Below the pieces are notes generated by a model. That model did no database searches. It was not told the origin of the DNA and worked only from the letters and a program-made list of their open reading frames with translations. From assembly GCA_963846575.1 (NCBI GenBank), contig CAWJWJ010000001.1:992001-1056000 (forward strand): a stretch of 64,000 nt of DNA, in the 5' to 3' direction. Source of the stretch: an uncultured Nitrospiraceae bacterium (lineage in GTDB: Bacteria; Nitrospirota; Nitrospiria; Nitrospirales; Nitrospiraceae). A program made the translations under genes and the position numbers. This document shows, piece by piece, positions 7,290 through 19,487 of this stretch (position 1 is its first letter; every line of letters starts with the position of its first letter).

Positions 7290-7373
7290 CACCCCGGACA
7301 GGCGGCCGGCTCACGAGCGGGACGCCTGGCATTCTTGACAACGCCTGCGGAACAATGGTTCTTATACCGGCGC

Positions 7374-7450
7374 GCGCCCGTAGCTCAATTGGATAGAGCA
7401 TCGGACTTCGGATCCGAGGGTTGGGGGTTCAAGTCCCTCCGGGCGCACCA
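7374..7450 (+). tRNA. tRNA-Arg (anticodon TCG)
   Basis: Acceptor GCGCCCG/CGGGCGC, D-arm GCTC/GAGC, anticodon stem TCGGA/TCCGA with loop CTTCGGA, GTTCAAGTCC T-loop, encoded CCA; TTGACA at 7335-7340 upstream. Confidence 0.96.
7406..7450 (+). repeat. attL core (3' part of tRNA-Arg from anticodon loop to CCA)
   Basis: CTTCGGATCCGAGGGTTGGGGGTTCAAGTCCCTCCGGGCGCACCA identical to 16067-16111. Confidence 0.95.
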
Positions 7451-7453
7451 GAT

Positions 7454-7466
7454 AATCAATAGGTTG
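7454..7466 (+). promoter_or_regulatory. IHF-like binding site beside attL
   Basis: AATCAATAGGTTG matches WATCAANNNNTTR. Confidence 0.6.
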
Positions 7467-7496
7467 CATCTTTTCTTCCGTTTTCTCCTCTTGGCT

Positions 7497-7519
7497 GGTC
7501 ACGGTTTTGGTCACGGTTC
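7497..7519 (+). repeat. Putative integrase arm-type sites (2 copies)
   Basis: GGTCACGGTTTT GGTCACGGTTC, identical 23-mer recurs at 15902-15924. Confidence 0.75.
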
Positions 7520-8552
7520 CAGCCAGACTTCCTCGATTCACGGCGTCCCGAAGATGTCCTGGGGCGAGGTGGGCATATCGGAGCGTCGTCTCAATATCGC
7601 GGTGCCCGAGGATCTCCTTCACCGACACGAGATCGACCCCTGCCATGACACGGCGACTAGCTGCGGTATGTCGGAGTGAGTGCCAGCACGCCCCGGTAAT
7701 CCCCGCTCGACGCAGGCCAGGCTCAAACGCGCGCCGGAGGAAGGCCCGGCTGTCCATCGGGTGAGTCACGTCCTTTAATCCTGGAAAGACCCACGCCGAT
7801 CGAAGGAACGAGTCAAATGACCTCAGAATCGGTCTTGGCTCCTTCGCTCAAGGGCACATGCCGGGTTTTTCCTCCCTTCGGCATGGGGAGGGTCAGGACC
7901 TCGTTCTCCAAATCGACCTGGTTCCACCTGAGCGAAAACTGTTCTCCTCGTCTCAGACCCCGTCTCGACGGCGAAGGCCACCAATTTCCACTCCTCCGGG
8001 GTCATCACGCCCCTCAATCGGTCAAGTTCCTCACTGGTCAGGAATCGCGTCCGGTTCGCTTCAGGGAAGAACTTGAGGCTGGAGACTGGGTTCTTGGTGA
8101 GCTTGTCGTCTTTGACGGCTAACATCAGCACATGACGAAGGAAGGCAAAATGCCGGTTGATCGTGGCATCCGCCCACAGTCGTTGCGGTTCCTTCTTGCT
8201 CACCTTCATTTTGGCTCGCATTCTGGCCTGAATGCGCCGGAGATCGTCTACTGAAATCTGGGTGAGCACGCGATTCCCGATGAGCAGCGACCAGCGTCGC
8301 CCATAGAGCACTTCACCTGGCTTGTTGCGGTTGACAGATCCTTCGAGATAGCGATTGATCCACGCCCGAAGCGTAATGTCCTTTCGAGGGGCGAATTTCT
8401 CCGGGAAAAATGTCCCTTCCCGAATGTCGGCCTTCAATCGGCCATACAGGGCCTTGGCCTGTGATTTCGTATCACACCGAAACCAGCGCTCCCGACCGTG
8501 GACGTAGAGGCGCACCCACCAGCCTTCACGGCCTTTCCGCTGCGTGATGCCT

Positions 8553-9219
8553 CTATCCTTTCCCGCTTTTCTTGCCACGATGGCTCTCCTTTCGCTCCCC
8601 GGTCTTCTGGGCCTCGCGCCACTTTCTCGCCGCGACTCGGTTCTGGCAGCGCGGCTGGCAGTATACCTGGTCGCGCCGGATGGCTAAATAGATCGTCCGC
8701 ACTCGGGGCAGCGACGAATGTAGTCCCCGGACTGGACCAAGAGGTGCACAAAGCGGTACTCAAACTCCTTCGCCTTGCGCTTCGCGCTCACGAAGATTGT
8801 TCCGGTCTCGTCGGAGAAGCTGCCCGGCGATACTCACGACCAGGGTGAACTGCGGAAAGGTGAAGGCGGTGTATCGCTTCATGCCAATAGAGTTCCAACT
8901 GCTCCAGGACGGCGGCCTGAATCTCCTGGGCTTCTTTGCGACTGGGAATCGTCTGATAGTTCTTCGCGTTGGGCACCGCTTCCACGCTCCAGCCACTTTC
9001 GGGGGCCACCATCCCACCGTATCGGTCTCCCGTCTCGTCGACAAAGGCCGCGACCTCAAACGCTACCAGCGTCCATTCCGTGGGCGTCAGAGTTTCTAGA
9101 TCGACCTGTAAAAAGCGGAGCACCCACCCGACGGCGCCATCCGGCATCGTGCGGATGCGCTCGATGGCTTTCTGATACTCCTGTTGGAATTCCTGCTCGG
9201 CCTTCCCCTGTGCGCTCAT
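8553..9219 (-). pseudogene. CGNR-type zinc-finger protein (about 221 aa reconstructed), three frameshifts
   Basis: Reconstructed C-terminus IRRCPECGTIYLAIRRDQVYCQPRCQNRVAARKWRE; AAAGGAG RBS; stop overlaps int start. Confidence 0.7.
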
Positions 9220-9424
9220 GCCTTCGGCTCCTTTCTCATGCCGAACCCTCCCCGTATTCCTGATCCCAACACCACCGAAAAAAGTGTCGTGCGGAAGGGC
9301 CGTCTCCACCTGAATTTGTTTGGCAAGTGTACCTCCGCACTTGATAATGGCTGTCAAGAGTCATCACGCCTAAAAAATAAGACGCGTGATCATTTTCCAA
9401 ACCATTCTTCCAAGGAGGTGCCCG

Positions 9425-9634
9425 ATGGTCCCAGTACAAAATTGATCACCATTCGAGAAGCGGCCGAACCGGTTAGGTCTGAAGGAAAGCACGATCAGGA
9501 AATACATCCTGAAACGGCAGATCGCCTATGTGAAGCCGTCGGTGCGAGCGGTGCGGATTCCCATCGAGGAATTGGAACGGATTCTCTCTGCCGGTCTGAG
9601 GCCGGCGATCCCTCAGGGGGAGGGTGCCCGATGA
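9425..9634 (+). pseudogene. Excisionase-like MerR/HTH_17 protein, at least one frameshift
   Basis: Reconstructed KLITIREAAERLGLKESTIRKYILKRQIAYVKPSVRAVRIPIEELERIL; AAGGAGG RBS at 9412-9418; ATGA overlap with next gene. Confidence 0.8.
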
Positions 9635-10346
9635 GCCGCTGGAAGGAGTTTCGGCGCGAACCAGTCGCCGGCGAATGGAGCAGGAAGCAGAAGCGGGGCT
9701 ATCACCGCGTCCGGTCGCTCCTGTGGTTCTGGGAGTCCCATCAGTTCCAGGTGCTCTGGGTCACGCTGTCTACGGCAGAAGGCGGGGATGCGGAGAAGCT
9801 CACCTATCACCACAAGCAACTGCGCCAACGGATCGAACGCCAGCTCGGCTTTGCAGGGTTGGAGTATTACCAGGTGCGGACAGATGAAGGGCATGGCGTG
9901 CTCCATATCTTCTGGGCCTGGCGGGTGCCGGATGGGGAACGCGCTCGCCGGTTCTGGATCTCGCAGGAATGGCTCTCGTCACAATGGGAAGCCCTCCACG
10001 GGGCTCCGGTGGTCTGGATCAAGGCCTACCAGCCCAGCCATCGCTCAAGGAACCGGTTGAGTCGCTACGTCATCAGCCAGTACGTCCAGGATCAATGCTG
10101 GCTACGTGAATATGTGTTGGTCGTGGAAACGGTCGCTTGGGGTTCCCCATCGGGAAGATGTGGGAAGAGATGCGGAACCAATGGCAGACCCAGAATGTCT
10201 ACCGACGCATACGGAAACAGATCGAAGTTCCTCGCATCGTCTTTCTCAAGACCTGGGAGGATCTGCTGTCTGGGCACCCCATCTGGTTCAGTAACACCAT
10301 TCTCCAACTCGTCCTGGGCAAAGGCCTCGTCTGGAGTCCGCTATGA
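9631..10346 (+). pseudogene. Putative rolling-circle replication initiator (HUH-like, about 237 aa reconstructed), two +1 frameshifts
   Basis: Motif I-like WVTLST, motif II-like EGHGVLHIFW, conserved W in SSQWEALHG, motif III-like LSRYVISQYVQDQ; position after xis. Confidence 0.62.
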
Positions 10347-10598
10347 AGAGCCCCCCATACCTGTGTCATCCAAATTAACAGTCTGTTGGGCCTCACGTGT
10401 TGCGGCAAGCCTGCCACGCTCTATGACCGGGCCAGAAAGGACTGGATTTGCACGGAACATCATCGGGAGCGTCTGTGCGAGTTCTGTCAGTGTGAGCGGG
10501 CCTGGGGGCGCGTACAGATGCGCTCTCATCTCTATGCCGCGCCCTGTGAGGTGTGGCTCTGTGCGTCATGTGCGGGAATACGGGACGGTAGGACCTGA
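10343..10598 (+). pseudogene. Small Cys/His-rich (zinc-binding) protein, 84 aa reconstructed, one +1 frameshift in a C6 run
   Basis: MKSPHTCVIQINSLLGLTCCGKPA...ICTEHH...CEFC...WLCASC; ATGA overlap with rep. Confidence 0.6.
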
Positions 10599-10812
10599 GA
10601 TCACGGCGGCCTGCTCTCATCAATCTCACCCTGTCACCCGTCCATTATCCTAACGGGTGAGAGGGGAATAGGGTGACCTCATCCTACCAGATGGCGGCGA
10701 TGCGTCAGCTTGGCCGTCCATCTGCTCTGTCGATACCTCGTTGCGTGAAGGAAAAGAATGAATGCAGACTAGGAGGAAAGAAGTCACGCAGGAAGCTTAC
10801 CCCAAGGACCCG

Positions 10813-10890
10813 CCGGCCGCTCCGGACCAATCGGACCGGACGGCCGGGGGGTTCGGGGGCAGAGCCCCCGCTTCACTTGATTCATATGGT
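10813..10890 (+). other. Candidate double-strand origin: two GC-rich hairpins followed by CACTTGATT
   Basis: IR 10813-10825/10836-10847; CGGGGGC-AGA-GCCCCCG 10854-10870; ACTTGAT at 10875-10881. Confidence 0.4.
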
Positions 10891-11563
10891 CAAAGTAGGA
10901 AACTTGGCTACGGTGTTTAGCGGGACCACTTCACTCTGATCCAACTCGCTGCTGACAAGCCCGATGCCGACGGCTTCTCTCGAAGCACGATCGAGCTTCT
11001 AAAGCCTGTCTATAATGGCGCGAGTTTAGTGAGAATAAGGGTTAAGGGACAACCAGTACGCTTGACGGGATTCTCCCTTGAACAGATGTGGATCGAAATG
11101 CCGCTAGAAAACTGTAGAGAACTGGTGTTTAAAACATCCCCACCCCCAGAAACTAAGGACCGTGATCGAGGACCGAAAGCTAATTAAACCGCCGTCCCCG
11201 CCAAGCGGATTGCCGTAGAAATTGGTTTGAATGTCACAATCTTCCTGGAGAGGATGGAGAGGTCAATACACCGGCCGCTCAGGTCCACCATCACTATCTA
11301 TACTCTCCTCTGCGTGCCATCAATAAAGCAGCGGAAGAAACCTATTAGTACTGTCCTGATCTCTGACTCCTCCGTATTCCCAAATCACCGCTAACATTCG
11401 TACCTCATACCTGAGACCTTTGTTGATCCTTGCCTGGTGATCAACTCGTGCCTGACTCTGAAACTGGCGTACGACTTGTAGCCGTGGTTCAGCGAACAAG
11501 ATGCGCAACATCTAAATAACGCTCAAGGTCCATCGGTTCCATCCTCTAGACGCACTCTGTTCG

Positions 11564-11599
11564 GTATCTCTTTAGATACGACTAGTATCTCTTTAGATA
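11564..11599. promoter_or_regulatory. Tandem palindromic operator/enhancer sites
   Basis: GTATCTCTTTAGATA twice with 21-bp period; first copy is the palindrome GTATCT-N4-AGATAC. Confidence 0.55.
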
Positions 11600-11660
11600 T
11601 ACTCTGAAATTTTTCGCATTCATGACTATTCGCTTTTTTAAACTGGCACGCAGAAACACG

Positions 11661-11676
11661 TGGCATGTGGTTTGCT
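11661..11676 (+). promoter_or_regulatory. Sigma-54 (-24/-12) promoter
   Basis: TGGCATG-TGGT-TTGCT with canonical GG/GC spacing, 50 nt upstream of ATG 11726. Confidence 0.65.
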
Positions 11677-11725
11677 CGTACTAGTATAGTAGCCGCAAGT
11701 TACGCACATTCAGCAGTCACCTGCA

Positions 11726-13336
11726 ATGGAGGTAACAGTGAAAGCCATCTATAACAAGAGATCTTATGTATCGGCAGTAGGGCTAACGTTGGGATGGCCA
11801 TTCCTTTTGGCCTCAACAGCCGTGGCGAGCGGGTATGAAGAATGTAACCAAATACTCACCCAGGACATCTTTAACAAGGTTCTAAAAAGTGATGTAAGCA
11901 CCGCGTCAGCGTCGGAGGCATACCAGTCGGCATATTTCAAGTCGAACGCCACAGCGGCATACAATGAATATAAGACGGCACATAAAGAAGCGCAGAAAAA
12001 AGGGACAAAGCTTGAGGTTGGAGGTAACTACGGTCCGATTGGTGCGAAGATGGGCCTAGAGTTGACCTCCGAGAAACTCGTTGAAAAAGAAGAGTTCGAG
12101 AAGGCATTTAACAGTGTGCAAAGTCAGGAGTCGGGATCGCAATCCTCTAGTTCCTCCTCAGCTCAATCCCTTGTAAATACATATGCTACATATGTCCGAG
12201 ACCCTGTAACCGTGTCTGCATGGAAAGATTGCGTCTCTCGGACGAAGGACACTAACCTCTACGCGTATGCAAGCCGTGATGGGAAGCGTACATATGTAAA
12301 CGTTATGTGGGTTCCGGGCGCCTTGGCTGGCATGCTACCTTCCATTCCAATAAGCTTCGTAACGCACGACTCGGACATTGTAATTGAAGCGAAATCAGTA
12401 GAACAAATCGCAATAGGGAGCGGTCGGAATTTTGTGGTGACTTGTAGCAAATCTTGCGACAAGGGCTTTCTGGTTACTGTCAACGGGAGCCTGAAAAATT
12501 CCACCGGCGCTCTCGGAGGCTCTTTCACTGCCACTGTGCAGGTACCTCCTAAGCGGTTACCTGTTCCGAAGGCTCCGGGAGTAGTAGCGTCCGTAGATCA
12601 CACATACATTTATGGGATCAATAACAACGGTGAAATGTTCTGGTATGAAAACGATCGACAGACTGATGATAGCCTTGAATGGGCCAGCGATGAGGGAAAG
12701 CTGGTCGGAACAGGGTGGAACTTTGATCAGGTCTTTTCCGGCGGCAATGCGGTTATTTATGGGGTCAAGGATAACGGCGATTTGCTGTGGTATCGCCATG
12801 ACGGGCGAAACGACGGAACGATGAAATGGTCTCCCCAATCTCGATCGAAGGTAGGCGATGGATGGCATTTCAAGCAAATATTTTCGATCGGCAATGGTGT
12901 CATCTACGCTATTAAGGAAAATGGCGACGTGTACTGGTATCGCCATGAAGGGCGAAATGACGGGAGTCTAAGATGGGCCAAAAATTCTGGGCAGCGAGTG
13001 GCCAGTGGGTGGGATTTTAAGCAAATTATTGCTGGCGACAACGGTGTGATCTATGGCGTCACTGACAACGGCGACGTACTTTGGTATCGCCACGAAGGAT
13101 GGAATGATGGTGGCTCGAGTTGGGCAAAAAAGTCCGGAACCAAGGTAAATTCTGGATGGAACTTCGAGAAAGTCTTTTCAATCGGCGGCGGTGTCATCTA
13201 TGGCGTCAAAGATAACGGCGACTTATTTTCATATCAGCATGAAGGACGGAATGATGGTAGCCCGAAATGGGCACCCAGCGATGGACAAAAAATGGGTGAC
13301 CGCTGGAACTTTAGGCAAGTCTTTGCGGGAAAATAG
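11726..13336 (+). CDS. Secreted protein with C-terminal tachylectin-like beta-propeller repeats
   Basis: Signal peptide; five approx. 51-aa repeats (WxFxQvfsgGnGVIYGVKDNGDLLWYRHxGRNDG...W). Confidence 0.85.
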   Translation: MEVTVKAIYNKRSYVSAVGLTLGWPFLLASTAVASGYEECNQILTQDIFNKVLKSDVSTASASEAYQSAYFKSNATAAYNEYKTAHKEAQKKGTKLEVGGNYGPIGAKMGLELTSEKLVEKEEFEKAFNSVQSQESGSQSSSSSSAQSLVNTYATYVRDPVTVSAWKDCVSRTKDTNLYAYASRDGKRTYVNVMWVPGALAGMLPSIPISFVTHDSDIVIEAKSVEQIAIGSGRNFVVTCSKSCDKGFLVTVNGSLKNSTGALGGSFTATVQVPPKRLPVPKAPGVVASVDHTYIYGINNNGEMFWYENDRQTDDSLEWASDEGKLVGTGWNFDQVFSGGNAVIYGVKDNGDLLWYRHDGRNDGTMKWSPQSRSKVGDGWHFKQIFSIGNGVIYAIKENGDVYWYRHEGRNDGSLRWAKNSGQRVASGWDFKQIIAGDNGVIYGVTDNGDVLWYRHEGWNDGGSSWAKKSGTKVNSGWNFEKVFSIGGGVIYGVKDNGDLFSYQHEGRNDGSPKWAPSDGQKMGDRWNFRQVFAGK

Positions 13337-13590
13337 GACCTGATTCAGGCACATCCACAGAGTCCAGTGATGGTCTTTGAGAGGATTATGTGACGCTAAC
13401 CATGAAACTTCACTGAATTGGACACGACCACCTCGGGAATTGATGACTGGGACGCCATCCAAAATCACAGGGTATCTCAGAGTTCAGACGATCACGACCA
13501 CAGACATGACAAAGTAAACTCACCGCTGGACTCAGATCGAGTCCGTCCGATCTTGTTTACCTTTCACAAGCCGAGTTGCAGGAGATACCA

Positions 13591-14433
13591 ATGTTTGTAC
13601 GATTCTATTTGATGATGGGAATCTCTTTGGTGTTTTTCTGTCAGGCGACTCCGTTACTTGCTGAAAATGTCCTCGAGTGGAAGGGTTTTAAAGGGGACAA
13701 TAAGCTAAAAGATGCAGCCAACCTCGATTCCGCTCACATAAAGCAGGGAGATCGGGGACCGCATGTCAGCAAGATACAACACTCTATAAAATTCCTGGAC
13801 TCCGCTTTCATCAGCCAAGAAGAAATGGACACACAAACATATGGTCCATCAACGGCTAAAGCTGTGCTGGGCTACAAAACTTCCCGAAAGATTATTAACC
13901 AGAAATACCAGTCAAAACCTGACAGCATTGTAGGGAAAATGACTATGGTGGCCTTAGATCGCGAGATGAGCCAAAGAGCCATGGAACGCTTTGAAGATCT
14001 CAAATTCCCTGCAGCAATGGAACCTTTCCCAAGTAACGAGGCGAAAGCTCCAGACGGCTTTTCTATCCCAATTCCCAAAACCATTACACGTTCTGGCAAT
14101 ATTATCTCTCTCCGGGGAGCAAGAGTAACAGTGACAATGGGGCCAGAACGCGCCAGTTCATGTAAATATCGCATGGTGATTGATAATGTTCCTCCGGAGA
14201 CTCACAACGACGCGCAACTAGCAAGTGAAGCAGCAGACCATCTGGTTGAAGAAGCCGCGTGGGCGGTAATACTTGATAAAGCAGCAGCCGCTATCACGTT
14301 TGGTTCCACAAAAGTAGGCATCGGTGTATCAGCAGCAGCAGCTTTAATTGTACCATCTCCAATTCTCCGAGAAATTGTGTGGCATGCTGATGTCGATGGG
14401 AGGAAGGTTTGCTACCTATTGGTAACCCAGTAA
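13591..14433 (+). CDS. Secreted peptidoglycan-binding domain protein
   Basis: Signal peptide; IKQGDRGPHVSKIQ...YGPSTAKAV...PDSIVGKMTMVALD; AGGAGA RBS. Confidence 0.75.
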   Translation: MFVRFYLMMGISLVFFCQATPLLAENVLEWKGFKGDNKLKDAANLDSAHIKQGDRGPHVSKIQHSIKFLDSAFISQEEMDTQTYGPSTAKAVLGYKTSRKIINQKYQSKPDSIVGKMTMVALDREMSQRAMERFEDLKFPAAMEPFPSNEAKAPDGFSIPIPKTITRSGNIISLRGARVTVTMGPERASSCKYRMVIDNVPPETHNDAQLASEAADHLVEEAAWAVILDKAAAAITFGSTKVGIGVSAAAALIVPSPILREIVWHADVDGRKVCYLLVTQ

Positions 14434-14760
14434 TCTTACCTCACCGTAGTTTTCAGTTGAAGCCCGCGATCAGCCTGATAGCTACAGATGACACTAGCTT
14501 GAGAAGCCGTTTTAAGGCGAGGGTAAGAGGTTCAATAACTTCGGGCCTATCGAACAGCTCTAAAGGCGTTGATAGGAAAACTGTAATGTTCGACATGAGA
14601 ACAGCTCGGGGAGCCATTGCTTTCATCGAACCATTTGAGGCGGAGTCATTTCAAATCAAGCGTTGCTATTTCTGCTCGCGATGACGCTTAAGGCTTAGGT
14701 TGAACAAGAGGCCGGCCTGTAGGTATCAGCGACTAGCAGCATTTGCGCCATCAAGCTATA

Positions 14761-15495
14761 CTATTGGATAAATGGGGTCGAACCCGATTCGTGGAATTGC
14801 TCTATCAATTGCCCTGCGCACTTGTTCCCAGCAATCGCGAGTTGCTGCACCATAAATATCATGCCCCATTCGGCTTGTTCTCGCCATTCGGACCGTACGT
14901 CCAGTGAACCAACAGAGCATTGACCCTGCCAAACCACCGTGGAGTCCTTGAGTCGAATGAGACGGGCACGTGCCTGATAGTAGAGGTTGAACTTCTTGCC
15001 CAAGACGTTAAACATGCCAGCGTCGGATATCCACAAGCTTGACACCTCAATGTTGAAGGGGTCGCGCTCGTGTAAAAATGCTTTACGTGATGTAAAGTCC
15101 AACACATAGCCATCACCGAAGGTTTCCCCTAACTCTGTTATTCCCTCTCGAATGCAACAAGATCGCGTTAATGACCACCGGTGTCGCCACACCACAGGTA
15201 TGGGCACGGATCGTATATTGGTAAGACCGGCTTGAGCCATCAATTGGGAAGACACCTGCTCTTTTATGATGTCGATAGGGTCTGATAAAAGCAGTCCGTG
15301 CGTGGAAGCTAGACCTGGTGCATAGGACACAAAAATACCGTCGCCCTGGCGCCAATGGACTGCTTGAATCAGTGGGATGTGCTGGAGCTCAGCCCTCTGC
15401 TGGTCCGATAGATTAAGCCGCCCAGTTCCCCCTATACATCCAAGCGTGCTCACTATGAAAAGGACGACAATCAGTCGCAATGCGATTCTAAACAT
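14761..15495 (-). CDS. Hypothetical lipoprotein
   Basis: Long ORF with MFRIALRLIVVLFIVSTLGC lipobox. Confidence 0.65.
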   Translation of the reverse strand: MFRIALRLIVVLFIVSTLGCIGGTGRLNLSDQQRAELQHIPLIQAVHWRQGDGIFVSYAPGLASTHGLLLSDPIDIIKEQVSSQLMAQAGLTNIRSVPIPVVWRHRWSLTRSCCIREGITELGETFGDGYVLDFTSRKAFLHERDPFNIEVSSLWISDAGMFNVLGKKFNLYYQARARLIRLKDSTVVWQGQCSVGSLDVRSEWREQAEWGMIFMVQQLAIAGNKCAGQLIEQFHESGSTPFIQ

Positions 15496-15901
15496 CAGAT
15501 TTCCATGTACGAGGGTGTGAAGCATCTGGTGGAGATCGGAAAACGGGGCAGTCTTGAGCTCGAGTCACAGTTGTGGAACGGCCCGCTAGCAGATGTTTCA
15601 CAGCTCGGGTAGTCGCACGCTATCCCTCAACATCCTAGTTAAATGGATGAATAATGCTAGGGAAAGTTGTAAATGGTCGTGCGGCGCCATCTGGGAGATT
15701 TTCCCGAGCACGATCGGCGCGTCCGGTTTAGTCTAGGGATTGAGCCGTTTCGATGATCAGGTAATTCTTTCGGGAGGAGGTCGCTCTATCGCTAACAGCA
15801 TAGAAGATGGCCGTCGCGATTGGGTCGAAAGCCGGAAAGCTCTTGATCCGCTCTATGGGCAATCCGGTTCACACGGAAGGAGCATATTGGACGGCATTCT
15901 C

Positions 15902-15947
15902 GGTCACGGTTTTGGTCACGGTTCGGTCCCGGTTTTGGCCCCGATTG
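15902..15947 (+). repeat. Putative arm-type sites (4 tandem copies, 2 degenerate)
   Basis: GGTCACGGTTTT GGTCACGGTTC GGTCCCGGTTTT GGCCCCGATTG. Confidence 0.75.
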
Positions 15948-15989
15948 CTAATCTACCCTCATCGTCACTGGTCGCACCGTTGAATGCTC

Positions 15990-16002
15990 TAATCGATTGA
16001 TT
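15990..16002 (-). promoter_or_regulatory. IHF-like site between arm repeats and attR
   Basis: Reverse strand AATCAATCGATTA matches WATCAANNNNTTR. Confidence 0.55.
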
Positions 16003-16066
16003 TGCAAAACTAAAATCACGTTCTGTCACCACCAATCGCTGTCAGTCTCTATGTCACTTTGTGAGC

Positions 16067-16111
16067 CTTCGGATCCGAGGGTTGGGGGTTCAAGTCCCTC
16101 CGGGCGCACCA
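16067..16111 (+). repeat. attR core (duplicated tRNA-Arg 3' fragment)
   Basis: 45/45 identical to 7406-7450. Confidence 0.95.
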
Positions 16112-16232
16112 TATAATCAATCGGTTGCATCTCCCCATCTCGTTTTCCCTCTTCACCGGTCACGGTTTCAGCGGGACTGCTTCGACTCACTTCGTCCCGA
16201 AACTGCCTCGTGGAAGGCGGGCGTATCGAGCG
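16112..16232 (-). pseudogene. Remnant 3' end of a second, related integrase
   Basis: Aligns with the sequence following attL; translates RYARL / FRDEVSRSSPAETVTGEEGKRDGEMQPIDY vs RYAHL / LRDAVNRGSLAGTVT...EEKMQPIDY. Confidence 0.75.
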
Positions 16233-16516: not shown

Positions 16517-16915
16517 GTGCATCTCTCACATCGCTCCCTCCATGTGCTTCGTCGATCGAGCCGGGCTTCCAGCCTGCTGGTCCTGATCGCCTGCCTGCTC
16601 ATCGGCATCCGGTCCGTGGCGGGATTCGTCTGCTACACCTGTTTCACGGATCTCGAGCGCCCCCTGTCGAGGAGTTTCCACCTCCATGCCGGGGGAGACG
16701 CGAACCCGTGCCACCACGGCAGGGTCGACGCCAGTCCGCTGAAGCAGTGGGCCTGCACCGTCACGCAGGACGATCCGGGCTATGTCCTGCCCGAGATTCC
16801 CCGGCTGCCGGTCGTCGGGTCGCTCTCCCTGCCGCTGATCCTGCTGCTGGTCTACTATCGAAGGCGCTTTCCGATCCCCGCCATCGGGCGGGGCCCTCCC
16901 GTCCTCGCCTCCTGA
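16517..16915 (+). CDS. DUF2946/CruR-like leader protein (CxxC, His-rich, C-terminal RGPP)
   Basis: Hydrophobic N-terminus, CYTC, HLHAGGDANPCHH, ends GRGPPVLAS; upstream of a TonB-dependent receptor. Confidence 0.7.
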   Translation: MHLSHRSLHVLRRSSRASSLLVLIACLLIGIRSVAGFVCYTCFTDLERPLSRSFHLHAGGDANPCHHGRVDASPLKQWACTVTQDDPGYVLPEIPRLPVVGSLSLPLILLLVYYRRRFPIPAIGRGPPVLAS

Positions 16916-17123
16916 TCTCAACACACCACCATTTTGAACCATTACGAGCCGGACACCCGCTGCGTCCGATGGGGTCTGTGTGATGCCGCCGGTCCTGCCT
17001 GGGGCTTCGAGGCGATGCCTTGGCCCAGGCCCGGTCCACGCGGAGCCTCGGGCCCGGCTGCAATGAGCCCGGCTTTCGCGACGTCTGCGCGCCATGCGGC
17101 CGTTGTCCGCAGGAGAGGAATTC

Positions 17124-19487
17124 ATGTCGATGTCATCCGTCCGTCTGTCCCGGTCCCTCCGCCACAGCGATCACCCGCGCTCAGGTCCCGGGCATTCATG
17201 GGCCACGCCGATAGCGGGCGCCGGAAGAATGCTGGCCGCGCTGCTCTGCCTCGCGACCTTCACCGCCTGCATCGGGCCGCAGAAGCCGCCGCTCGCGCCG
17301 GAAACGCAGGAAGCTCCGCCTCCGGATGCGGAAGCTGCCAGCCCCTCACCGCCAGCCGGGCCGGTCGAACCCGACGCGCCGGTGGGACTTCCCCTGCCGC
17401 TTCCCCCCGCGCCCGACCGTGAGCGGCCAGCCGGGCCTCCTTCGCCGACGGCATCGGACGTGCCGGTCGTGGATGTCGAGCCGGTGCATGTGACGGCGCA
17501 GGCCGAGACCTATCAGGTCACCCATGCCACCACGGCGACCAAGACCGATACGGCCATCATGGACACGCCGATGTCGGTCAAGGTCGTGCCTCAGCAGGTC
17601 ATGCTCGATCAGCAGGTCGTCCGGGTCGATCAGGCGCTCAAGAACGTCAGCAGCGTCATCAGCGGGGCGGAAGGCGATATGCAGTTTAATGTACGCGGGT
17701 TCGACCAGTTCAATTTCTACCGCGACGGCTACCCGTTCCAGAGCCAGTGGTTTCACGCGGAGGACCTCACCAACATCGAGCAGGTGGAGGTCCTGAAAGG
17801 GCCGGGCTCCATCCTTTATGGACGGACCGAACCGGGCGGCGTCATCAATTTCGTCACCAAGCAGCCGCTGGACCAGCCCTCCTACAGCCTGCGCCAGCAG
17901 GTCGGATCCTATGGATGGTATCGCACCAACGCCGACCTCACCGGCCCTCTCACGGAGGATCGCCGTGTGTCCTACCGGCTGAACATCGGCTATCAAACGA
18001 ACCACACGTTCCAGGAATTCGGCAGCCAGGAGCGGCTGATCGTCTCGCCGCAGGTGCGATGGAGAATCACGGACCGGACCACCTCCACGGTCAAATACGA
18101 GTACAGCGATATCTCGCTCAACGGACGCGGCAACGTTCCCCTGTTGGGCAATCGCCCCGCGCCCATTTCACGGGAGCTCAACCTGGGTGAACGATGGAAC
18201 CTGCAAAACGACCGGTATCACCTGGTCTCGGTGTTGACGGACCATGCCTTCAACAAGGCCTGGACGCTCCGCCATCGCTTCAATTTCAGTCATCATCAGT
18301 TGACGATGACGGGTCAAAACGTCACGACGGCGGCGGCCAACGGAGACGTGAGCCGGTTCTTCTTCGCGCAGAATACGGACGGGAAAGACTATACGCGCAA
18401 TTTCTTTAATGCCCTCGAACTGACGGGCCGCCTGTCGACAGGGCCGGTCAAGCACACCCTCCTGTTCGGGGGAGATTACTTCCAGAGCGACATCCGGGCG
18501 ACGATGGCCTTCTCGCCGGCATTGGATGCCGGGATCAACCTGTTCAACCCCATCCATTCGGCGGGGCCGCCGGTGATCCAACCGGGAGACGTGACGACCT
18601 TCAATTGGTCGCTGCCCTGGTTCGGCCTCTACGCGCAGGATCAGATCGAGTTGCCCTACCATATCCATCTCCTGGCCGGACTCCGGTACGACAACGCGAA
18701 GACCTCGACCGCGAATGAGAACCTCGGCGTTCGAACGGACCGGATCAAGGATACCAACGACCGGATCTCACCGCGTGCCGCCTTGTTGTGGCGGCCCATT
18801 TCGGAGTTGTCGCTCTACGGCAGTTACACGGAGAACTTCGGCGCGTCGAACACCTTCACGGCCGCGAGTCTCACACCGCTTCCGCCGCAGACGGCCCAGC
18901 AGTGGGAGCTGGGGGCGAAGACGGAACTCTTCGGCGGGCGGTTTACCGGCACCCTCGCCTATTTCAACCTGACCAAGCAGAACCTGCCGGTGTTTTTCCC
19001 GACTGAAACCAGGGCGGTCGGTGAGGGGGAAAGCCGGGGACTGGAACTGGATGTCAGCGGAGAGATCCTGCCCGGCTGGAGCGTCATCGGCGCCTATTCG
19101 TACATACCCTTCGCCAAGACGACCAAGGACGATCCCGGCCTCGGGACGATGGGAAAGCGCTTGAACAACGCCCCGGTCAACAGCGGCAGCCTCTGGACGG
19201 TCTATCAATTTCAGCAGGAGGACCTGCGAGGACTCAGGGTGGGAGCCGGGGTACAGGGGGTCGGCGAACGGCAGATCGGCTTCGGCGAAACGGCCCAGGC
19301 CCCCGGGTACGTGATCGCCAACGCGATGGCGAGTTATCAGTGGCGGGTTGGAAGGGTCAAGTACATTGCCCAGCTGAACGTGGATAATCTGTTTGATAAG
19401 ACCTACATCGGGCACATCTTCTTCTATGGGCCCACGTATTACGGCATGCCCCGGTTTTATACGGGCTCGATCCGCGTGGAGTTCTAA
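17124..19487 (+). CDS. TonB-dependent (siderophore-type) outer-membrane receptor
   Basis: TATKTDTAIMDTPMSV plug, IEQVEVLKGPGSILYG, PGGVIN, NLFDKTY, C-terminal F; AGGAGA RBS. Confidence 0.95.
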   Translation: MSMSSVRLSRSLRHSDHPRSGPGHSWATPIAGAGRMLAALLCLATFTACIGPQKPPLAPETQEAPPPDAEAASPSPPAGPVEPDAPVGLPLPLPPAPDRERPAGPPSPTASDVPVVDVEPVHVTAQAETYQVTHATTATKTDTAIMDTPMSVKVVPQQVMLDQQVVRVDQALKNVSSVISGAEGDMQFNVRGFDQFNFYRDGYPFQSQWFHAEDLTNIEQVEVLKGPGSILYGRTEPGGVINFVTKQPLDQPSYSLRQQVGSYGWYRTNADLTGPLTEDRRVSYRLNIGYQTNHTFQEFGSQERLIVSPQVRWRITDRTTSTVKYEYSDISLNGRGNVPLLGNRPAPISRELNLGERWNLQNDRYHLVSVLTDHAFNKAWTLRHRFNFSHHQLTMTGQNVTTAAANGDVSRFFFAQNTDGKDYTRNFFNALELTGRLSTGPVKHTLLFGGDYFQSDIRATMAFSPALDAGINLFNPIHSAGPPVIQPGDVTTFNWSLPWFGLYAQDQIELPYHIHLLAGLRYDNAKTSTANENLGVRTDRIKDTNDRISPRAALLWRPISELSLYGSYTENFGASNTFTAASLTPLPPQTAQQWELGAKTELFGGRFTGTLAYFNLTKQNLPVFFPTETRAVGEGESRGLELDVSGEILPGWSVIGAYSYIPFAKTTKDDPGLGTMGKRLNNAPVNSGSLWTVYQFQQEDLRGLRVGAGVQGVGERQIGFGETAQAPGYVIANAMASYQWRVGRVKYIAQLNVDNLFDKTYIGHIFFYGPTYYGMPRFYTGSIRVEF

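Follow-up and report, generated by a model that had tools for sequence, protein, structure and literature searches.

What occupies the tRNA-Arg(TCG) gene in this stretch of Nitrospiraceae DNA, and how might so small an element renew what it carries? The window, i.e. the whole 64,000-nucleotide stretch that was analysed (contig CAWJWJ010000001.1, positions 992,001 to 1,056,000), contains an 8.7-kb element bounded by an exact 45-bp direct repeat (7406-7450 and 16067-16111). Probably it is a tRNA-integrated element that is likely excised as a circle by its integrase (Int) and excisionase (Xis), nicked for rolling-circle replication at CACTTG/AT by a Rep related to that of the Thermotoga plasmid pRQ7, and able to swap cargo between its origin and its right end with sibling elements, which integrate by a tyrosine or a serine recombinase. 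What is observed comprises the layout of the element and its family, the origin motif held in common, an abrupt cargo boundary, foreign att sites nested in cargo, and chimeras. A preliminary description of this DNA had proposed a minimal integrative rolling-circle element; the Rep fold, the homology and origin motif in common with pRQ7, the synteny and an empty allele speak for it, whereas the circles themselves lack a trace, as no attP joint was seen.

An HUH-fold Rep and its predicted origin

Three features form the replication module:
9631..10346, + strand: Rep, HUH-fold, pRQ7-related; TxEGxGVLH and YxxxQYxxxQ; +1 indels near 10099 and 10138
10627..10724, + strand: conserved hairpin block; z -5.7; aligned in tyrosine- and serine-type elements
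10813..10901, + strand: predicted double-strand origin; two GC hairpins; conserved to about +22

An intact 237-residue relative of the Rep was modelled (predicted local distance difference test score, pLDDT, 83.6). Two methods returned SIRV1 ORF119 as the top solved match (Z 10.2, root-mean-square deviation 3.8, 113 aligned; Foldseek E 0.014); in the accessible part of PMC6668415, the SIRV1 Rep is described as an HUH-fold nicking enzyme. The next structural row has Z 7.7, Reps of parvoviruses, AAV, Helitrons and geminiviruses score Z 6.0-7.5 amid unrelated ferredoxin-like folds, and microvirus initiators are among 66 matches in BFVD. No Pfam, PHROG or NCBIfam match exceeded the cut-off and no sequence match to solved structures was obtained; the Atlas neighbour is PF23343 (0.97), the family to which the pRQ7 Rep belongs. 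The sole plasmid matches are Thermotoga pRKU1 and pRQ7 (tblastn E 6e-6), and the Rep of the present family is 26% identical to that of pRQ7 (hhalign 98.3%, E 1e-14, 169 columns). The HUH-like Rep suspected beforehand is thus borne out by structure search and hhalign.

A profile search yielded 871 representatives at 50% identity. Motifs were read from 148 sequences (9 earlier ones and the 139 of the best 150 that were new), in which TxEGxGVLH, QxWLSxxWxxxH and YxxxQYxxxQ are conserved. HUH motif I (UUTU) is present as W/F-x-T/D/M-L-T/S at 43-47 (L46 in 133/144) and aligns with FLTLT of pRQ7. Motifs II and III deviate: H92 is invariant (148/148), but position 94, which aligns with the second His of pRQ7, is L/F/V/I/Y in 145/148; the Lys of YxxK/YxxKY is absent, the residues of this region being Y146 (148/148), Q150 (140/147), Y151 (144/147) and Q155 (134/148). 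The canonical HMH and YMMKYLSK of the pRQ7 Rep align with H92-I-F and Y146-Y151, and on the strength of this alignment the family would work like an HUH initiator yet fail two of the defining motifs. T84 and E86 (each 147/148) may substitute for the second His, and nicking and joining at the origin are predicted activities of the Rep. The rep gene has a median ratio of nonsynonymous to synonymous substitution rates (dN/dS) of 0.02 over 945 pairs, and Rep is intact in 39 of 40 relatives.

Of the non-coding blocks, the predicted origin is the best conserved. The predicted nick by Rep falls between 10879 and 10880, in CACTTG/AT; phiX174 and pC194 are nicked at CTTG/AT. The surrounding motif, TTCACTTGAT-N7-GTCA at 10872-10892, is also present in the 846-bp pRQ7: the 10-mer TTCACTTGAT was defined on the present elements and recurs there with GTCA 7 nucleotides on, as here; the combined pattern was written after viewing both, which deprives its shuffle control of independence. 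The pRQ7 copy of the motif falls within the 5' end of rep, where it is translated as SLD, and [SPL]LD occurs in the N-terminal extensions of 36/93 distant Reps versus 9/677 background windows. In loci L040, L105 and L114, the origin motif stands just ahead of the Rep core. We infer from sequence that the ancestor may have been a minicircle of origin and rep, into which cargo, att and integrase would have been inserted directly after the origin. Many distant Reps with the origin in the 5' end reside on contigs of 1.1-2.3 kb (P0041-P0126), some of which may be free miniplasmids like pRQ7.

About 1.1 kb of non-coding DNA in this region had been described as hairpin-rich. This holds for 10610-10730 (z -5.7) and 10800-10905 (z -4.9) but not for 10905-11730, where six windows give z -1.8 to +1.2 against shuffles and the sequence is unconserved cargo DNA; the structured portion of the stretch measures only ~300 bp. 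The hairpin block at 10627-10724, which int-less derivatives retain, is a candidate single-strand origin, terminator or packaging signal. The origin region has no meaningful match in plasmid or phage collections. Rfam returned nothing in L001, L026, L035 and L051, and the hairpins and the integration site termed X (below) therefore represent no known RNA family.

Integration site and family

The element sits in the sole tRNA gene that ARAGORN finds in the window:
7374..7450, + strand: tRNA-Arg(TCG), integration target (ARAGORN)
7406..7450, + strand: attL core, 45 bp (repeat search), starting at the anticodon loop
7497..7519, + strand: left arm-type repeat, tandem GGTCACGGT; identical copy at 15902-15924
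15902..16066, + strand: conserved right end with arm-type repeats, 165 nucleotides ahead of the attR core
16067..16111, + strand: attR core, 45 bp (repeat search)

The left repeat copy is the 3' half of the tRNA gene from the 7-nucleotide anticodon loop onward. The anticodon loop, likely the crossover point, is where the cores at four other sites, Arg(TCT), Cys, Gln and Lys, start too. The arm-type repeat at 7497-7519 is conserved in relatives at several sites and is likely an integrase arm site. The element has an integration and excision module of its own (int, xis, the 45-bp att repeats and a known empty allele).

Searched with its first 155 residues, the Rep has matches in 25 of 36 same-genus genomes, as many as six in a single genome and most of them 85-97% identical, and in 1 of 24 other genomes of the order; in the genome that holds the window, rep is single-copy. 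Of the loci from named genomes, 38/54 are Nitrospira or Nitrospirota; near-identical Reps on six short contigs that were assigned to other bins may reflect misbinning, and ten distant relatives come from Bathyarchaeia, Thermoplasmatota, Verrucomicrobiota and Proteobacteria. The loci studied were 40 of 61 rep-matching places and at least 120 metagenome stretches retrieved by the origin pattern, 80 with flanks. They contain 70 complete elements, 52 of them distinct, at seven sites: Arg(TCG) 16, Arg(TCT) 9, X 8, Gln 7, Cys 5, Asn 4 and Lys 3. Expectations of the preliminary description are confirmed here in three respects: (i) the backbone synteny recurs elsewhere, in 52 distinct complete elements; (ii) their cargo varies within it, in keeping with an exchangeable slot; (iii) an empty attB exists, since the empty allele L268 continues with the 50 nucleotides that follow attR in L120.

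In the tRNA-Asn type, a large serine recombinase, a Peptidase_M78 protein and a helix-turn-helix (HTH) repressor replace int, the CGNR-like gene and xis; the regulators of these siblings are ImmA/ImmR-like. At the 30 Arg(TCG) loci the integrase is intact in 9, a remnant in 7 and without trace in 9, and 5 are uninformative.

The core of site X (L026, L035, L052, L055, L157) spans ~50 bp and is neither an ARAGORN tRNA nor an Rfam family. Int-less or rep-less derivatives (L162/L182, L148, L250, L251, L256) keep the attL arm, hairpin block, origin, cargo and attR, and are possibly non-autonomous passengers. A proteobacterial locus at tRNA-Arg(CCT) (L114:5923-11390) combines an integrase, a Rep of the same family, a small phrog_4994 OB-fold-like gene and an AlpA-like gene, with no virion genes. 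In Bathyarchaeia (L107-L112), Reps of the family with TNEGNGVLH and a single Tyr in motif III lie beside integrases or tRNAs.

Cargo and its sharp boundary

Beyond the origin lies the cargo:
10902..14616, no strand assigned: origin-proximal cargo block, likely newer; not found in relatives; ends at a nested att site
11726..13336, + strand: 536-residue predicted secreted protein, tachylectin beta-propeller (PF14517, E 7e-36)
13576..14433, + strand: 285-residue predicted secreted protein, possible peptidoglycan-binding N-terminal part
14761..15525, - strand: predicted lipoprotein in the att-proximal, likely older block

The secretion ascribed to all three products agrees with their N-termini, which by eye are signal-peptide-like or contain a lipobox. 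The tachylectin gene contains five 147-nucleotide repeats, the 285-residue protein has weak PHROG endolysin matches (E 0.002-0.004, residues 34-141), and the lipoprotein has three homologs besides itself. GC content falls from ~60% to 45-51% over most of the cargo, and the att-proximal block is 98% identical and gap-free in short-read contigs.

The boundary is sharp. Conservation ends ~20 nucleotides past the nick (~2 bits at +17 to +19, 0.3 at +23, near 0 from +27; positions -16 to +13 are partly fixed by the search patterns), and the 184 of 193 origin copies with enough flank lead into 131 different cargo starts. Among 119 cargo proteins of the family with at least 140 residues, 58 have no Pfam match at 1e-5. 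Defence-type cargo domains comprise Schlafen, SIR2, STAND and KAP NTPases, Abi_alpha and reverse transcriptase as well as MmeI, GmrSD, HEPN, PIN and RES.

An IS91/ISCR-like arrangement, with variable DNA 5' of the nick, was rejected because the upstream side is conserved and the downstream side variable; a short inverted repeat after the nick was likewise dismissed (information ~0.1 bit at +25 to +29). Cassettes that start at the nick, or modules made only of post-nick DNA, were not found among the elements. The integron hallmark of a recombination site at each cassette junction is absent, extra origins being rare (L041, L086, L158) and whole; attC was not searched for.

A second cargo slot exists between the zinc-finger gene and the origin (L021:10631-13787 and the related tRNA-Cys and tRNA-Asn elements L039 and L041). 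Its contents, a two-component system plus a gene for chlorite dismutase (PF06778, E 1e-31), occur in tyrosine- as well as serine-type elements. An att-proximal block that makes up the final 1.04 kb of cargo is common to six loci (L023, L032, L059, L078, L125, L192); it holds a toxin-antitoxin pair resembling RelB/YafQ (by eye) and has an internal arm remnant ahead of it.

Nested att sites and chimeric elements

Two sites inside the cargo resemble the att sites of siblings:
14571..14632, + strand: nested site resembling the attR of the tRNA-Asn (serine-recombinase) siblings; has a P arm, CG at 14607-14608, a tRNA-Asn 3'-end mimic and a conserved right half
14502..14536, + strand: tRNA-Lys-att-like sequence; weaker, as 1/3 shuffle controls reached its score

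In a profile search, 14571-14616 is the best match genome-wide (31.7 vs 13.9 for the next). By a profile built from six genuine serine-type attR ends (leave-one-out scores 17-53), such a site lies inside the cargo of 16 of 48 tyrosine-type elements (scores 17-55), always in the same orientation and in 13/16 with CG at the joint; the reverse-strand maximum is 9.1, the shuffle maximum 4.1, and no two arms are 30/36 alike. With foreign tyrosine cores included, the count rises to 19/48; a foreign att core within cargo occurs in 8/52 elements. The place in L029 homologous to 14502-14536 is a junction with a Lys-type arm.

Several sequences join the parts of different elements. One short-read contig matches 14610-15936 at 98% but has other DNA from its origin to that point. 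L158 has a tyrosine-type backbone to -80 and then the cargo (96%/2.77 kb) and att arm (97%/78 nucleotides) of the serine-type L187; L078 and L044 stand in the same relation over 601 nucleotides. L151 and L180 have 977 nucleotides in common at 98.8% and diverge after the CG crossover into different right ends, and in L159 the cargo and attR of the X-site element L140 lie inside an Arg(TCT) right end. A CTTCA-like half-site motif occupies positions 21-25 of the P arms and 16-20 of the internal right half, an offset that matches the 5-bp shift between attP and attB reported for serine integrases in the accessible part of PMC3783163. The rep DNA identity is 88.5% within sites and 88.2% between sites, and the nearest neighbour of a rep is at the same site in 19/49 cases.

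Backbone genes and the state of the resident copy

The other backbone genes and their control region are:
7362..8578, - strand: tyrosine integrase (PF00589); reads through attL; +1 indels near 7830 and 7956
8553..9219, - strand: CGNR-like zinc-finger regulator; weak zf-CGNR; indels near 8696, 8834 and 8876
9320..9391, no strand assigned: divergent control region; sigma70-like site at 9320-9348; palindrome at 9363-9391, the likely operator
9425..9634, + strand: xis, HTH_17 excisionase family; indels near 9432 and 9466
10343..10591, + strand: 80-residue double zinc-finger protein (C-C-C-H + C4); indels near 10349 and 10584

Thus, int and the CGNR-like gene run leftward, and xis, rep and the Cys-rich zinc-finger gene rightward, followed by the non-coding DNA and three cargo open reading frames (ORFs). 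Most of the anatomy given in the preliminary description stands: the 45-bp att repeats are exact copies; the Cys-rich regulator overlaps int by 26 nucleotides, with a zf-CGNR match under the cut-off (E 0.02); ATGA overlaps at 9631 and 10343 couple the three rightward genes, with the xis family matched via an intact relative (HTH_17 E 5e-9, also TIGR01764); and there are no capsid, terminase, Zot, type IV secretion system (T4SS) or primase matches among the ORFs scanned. T4SS families gave 0 matches with all element ORFs accounted for, i.e. mating-pore genes are lacking. The pI/Zot ATPase likewise had 0 matches within the element; four Zot loci lie elsewhere in the genome.

The integrase matches Phage_integrase with E 2e-11 (3' piece; 4e-26 for an intact relative), and its pieces are 87-98% identical to an intact 404-residue relative. 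Its frame crosses the att core (7362-7450, 16026-16111), and its C-terminal tail would differ between the integrated and excised states. Two regulator subtypes, ~55% alike, pair with two distinct palindromes ahead of xis (34/34 and 20/20 distinct cases), a pairing that linkage alone could yield. The CGNR-like protein is likely a repressor, since both subtype-specific sites are palindromes beside the promoter region; the sigma70-like site is a single promoter match at chance level. The double zinc-finger gene always adjoins rep within the family, and its eight ligands are invariant in 27 sequences; its model (pLDDT 87.6) has weak structural matches to LIM/treble-clef folds (Z <=3.7), and Atlas gave no named family above 0.9.

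Approximately 11 single-base indels are spread over all five backbone genes (int, regulator, xis, rep and zinc-finger gene), as had been claimed. Quite probably these are assembly errors. The alternative, in which all five genes of the resident copy are truly inactivated and the family description is not valid for its present activity, is somewhat unlikely. It would account for the contrast between 3.2 kb with ~11 indels and 32 host genes (11,961 residues) with 0 frame changes, and copies that are decayed or have lost int are frequent at Arg(TCG), 7/30 loci. The correctly aligned pieces, however, are without in-frame nonsense codons or excess amino-acid divergence, 1.3 kb of cargo is gap-free relative to short-read contigs, and the other repeated mobile elements of the genome look frameshifted too, which would be expected if polishing had failed on sequences with many near-copies in the community. 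No sequencing run contained the exact element, the best share being 0.14.

A model for cargo exchange and its alternatives

The favoured reading, an excising rolling-circle element that swaps cargo, could operate in the following manner: The CGNR-like protein would repress the divergent promoters at the palindrome 9363-9391. Upon induction, Int and Xis would form a circle, which Rep would amplify. A sibling circle, mostly of the serine-recombinase type, would recombine into an internal tRNA-Asn-like landing site near the right end of the resident. Recombination between the two near-identical 100-bp origin blocks, through RecA or through cutting and joining by Rep, may follow and remove the old cargo and the sibling integrase. 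The product would consist of the resident backbone, the origin, the new cargo, a foreign attR, leftover old cargo and the resident's own attR; this predicted order is the order seen in the element studied here. Tyrosine-type siblings may also swap cargo via two homologous blocks flanking it, and cell-to-cell transfer would need a helper. More tentatively, the family may form an inter-element cargo-exchange network with a built-in tRNA-Asn-mimic landing pad, integration by serine-type siblings and a single-His HUH Rep that resolves cointegrates at duplicated origins. If so, defence and metabolic cargo, including chlorite dismutase, would be shuffled among up to six resident copies per genome, an integron-like process made from two unrelated recombinases and a replication initiator.

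Besides the deviating HUH motifs II and III, a number of observations weigh against this mechanism. The attP circles looked for after the preliminary description did not appear: no attR-to-attL joint was seen in the contigs of four runs of relatives (15 of 26 joints listed) or in metagenome loci, and terminal repeats were absent from every fetched locus, with 80 metagenome loci annotated. The same contigs and the 80 annotated loci yielded no cointegrate intermediates. No intact unoccupied internal attB was recognised, which leaves repeated use of one landing site without an explanation. The half-site motif is degenerate (CTTCA in 6/16 internal right halves) and was noticed post hoc. Post-nick positions differ between L158 and L187, and the left crossover maps to the 100-bp block only, not to the nick. 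The elements are related, so that counts are not independent, and the cargo boundary might merely mark the limit of selection.

Transfer could alternatively rely on filamentous phages. Four Zot/pI loci of ~5.5 kb, 83-91% alike, reside in the same genome, and the element could be a satellite of such prophages, its Rep making single-stranded DNA (ssDNA) circles that are packaged via the conserved hairpins. This is unlikely, though compatible with the preferred reading. The element size (4.7-11 kb) and strong hairpins would suit it, as would the int-less derivatives that keep hairpins and origin; VirB4 (PF03135) is found in just 4/36 same-genus genomes, and Zot is present in 15/25 rep-positive versus 3/11 rep-negative genomes of the genus, a weak difference confounded by assembly quality. 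The satellite option offered in the preliminary description nevertheless finds no support here: there is no sequence in common with the host filamentous loci beyond tRNA ends and 15-mers (packaging signals can be structural), G001 has three elements on one contig and 0 Zot matches, the phage collection gave nothing, and IMG/VR holds one contig with rep and 0 with the origin pattern. ssDNA is under-sampled in IMG/VR. The filamentous-prophage-like loci (C2:2085400-2090900, C2:1344400-1351400, C2:435500-441500 and C1:1-6400) adjoin different tRNAs, have different integrases and contain Rep_trans-like and coat-like ORFs (by eye); in the genus, 18/36 genomes have Zot matches.

A more modest account dispenses with any dedicated exchange route: the boundary would be the end of selection on the origin, and the nested sites would be remnants of one or a few old captures that ordinary homologous recombination has reshuffled. 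The lack of post-nick-only modules fits, and so does the internal site, fixed ~55-58 nucleotides before the first arm repeat in many elements and often degenerate; point mutation, too, separates cargo arms (related starts are 78-92% alike). We consider this account rather doubtful, as recent chimeras join exactly at the crossover dinucleotide (L151 vs L180; L158 vs L187) and the 16 arms are all different, some matching particular genuine serine-type elements. Finally, a strict integrative mobilizable element (IME), in which Rep would also be the relaxase and the origin would act as oriT with the conjugation pore of a helper, is improbable: the overall anatomy is alike, and among streptococcal IMEs with rolling-circle-initiator relaxases 35/118 are without a coupling protein (accessible part of PMC5704250), but the element itself has no coupling protein, and PF03135, which covers one VirB4 class (other systems were not tested), gave 0 matches in its genome and 4/36 in the genus.

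Relation to known systems

Integrated rolling-circle replicons are already known; what is new here is that the Rep motifs are altered, the origin is displaced and cargo exchange is mapped on both sides. The gene combination, which had not been recognised as a described family, indeed has no description in the literature searched, which covered few subscription papers; the general class is not new.

TLC counts, like RS1, among filamentous-phage satellites, and RS1-type satellites use the host XerCD, whereas the Nitrospira element has its own integrases and no genes or signals in common with a helper were found. RS1 of CTXphi resembles it in being a small replicon of the rolling-circle type that lacks virion genes and resides in hosts which carry filamentous prophages (accessible part of PMC11389934). 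The closest known relatives are the Thermotoga plasmids pRQ7, pRKU1 and pMC24, the 'pRKU1-like' cluster of 25 proteins in the accessible part of PMC6668415, with a homologous Rep and TTCACTTGAT-N7-GTCA. The one Nitrospira accession looked up there falls in the pKH9-like column. pRQ7, reported to replicate by rolling circle (PMC3398313, accessible part, citing a 1997 paper), is a free one-gene plasmid with the motif inside rep and canonical HMH and YMMKYLSK, whereas the Nitrospira element is integrated, has its origin downstream of rep and the zinc-finger gene, and carries TxEGxGVLH and YxxxQYxxxQ.

Streptococcus IMEs (PMC5704250) and 'integrated plasmids' (PMC6668415), as far as the accessible parts describe them, similarly combine a tRNA-end integrase, xis, regulators, a rolling-circle initiator and cargo; they lack mating-pore and virion genes, have decayed derivatives and accrete at att sites. 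The present element differs from the IMEs in its Rep family, the absence of a TcpA coupling protein and its Nitrospirota host; IME accretion as described in the accessible text is tandem at the same att site, whereas here foreign att sites are nested in cargo after a fixed origin. Pipolins (10.1101/2024.05.22.595293) are alike in their minimal core, defence-biased cargo, tRNA integration by a tyrosine or serine recombinase and integrase exchange; their core, however, is a primer-independent PolB instead of an HUH Rep, and the accessible text describes no fixed origin boundary or landing site. No polymerase ORF (piPolB) is present in the element backbone. Charybdis elements and Rep-Arvir, judged from the accessible parts of their sources, were considered and are unrelated.

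The renewal of defence cargo in small integrated elements is largely unexplained; the family offers mapped breakpoints on both sides together with named enzymes, which makes the exchange question amenable to in vitro tests. The same family delimits a large, unnamed group of Reps with altered catalytic motifs, a cognate origin and a cultured relative (pRQ7). Nitrospira are key nitrifiers in wastewater plants, and their elements, present at several tRNA sites, bring with them anti-phage genes and a module for chlorite dismutase. Genetic tools could be developed from such a native replicon and its site-specific integrases.

Flanking DNA

Outside the element, on its right, one further feature was recorded:
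16112..16205: scar left by an older relative, with its left arm and the 3' end of its integrase

The scar is 86% identical to the attL flank and 62% to the integrase tail at the amino-acid level. The right flank (16517-19487) continues with a small Cys/His-rich membrane ORF and a TonB-dependent-receptor-like gene (by eye).

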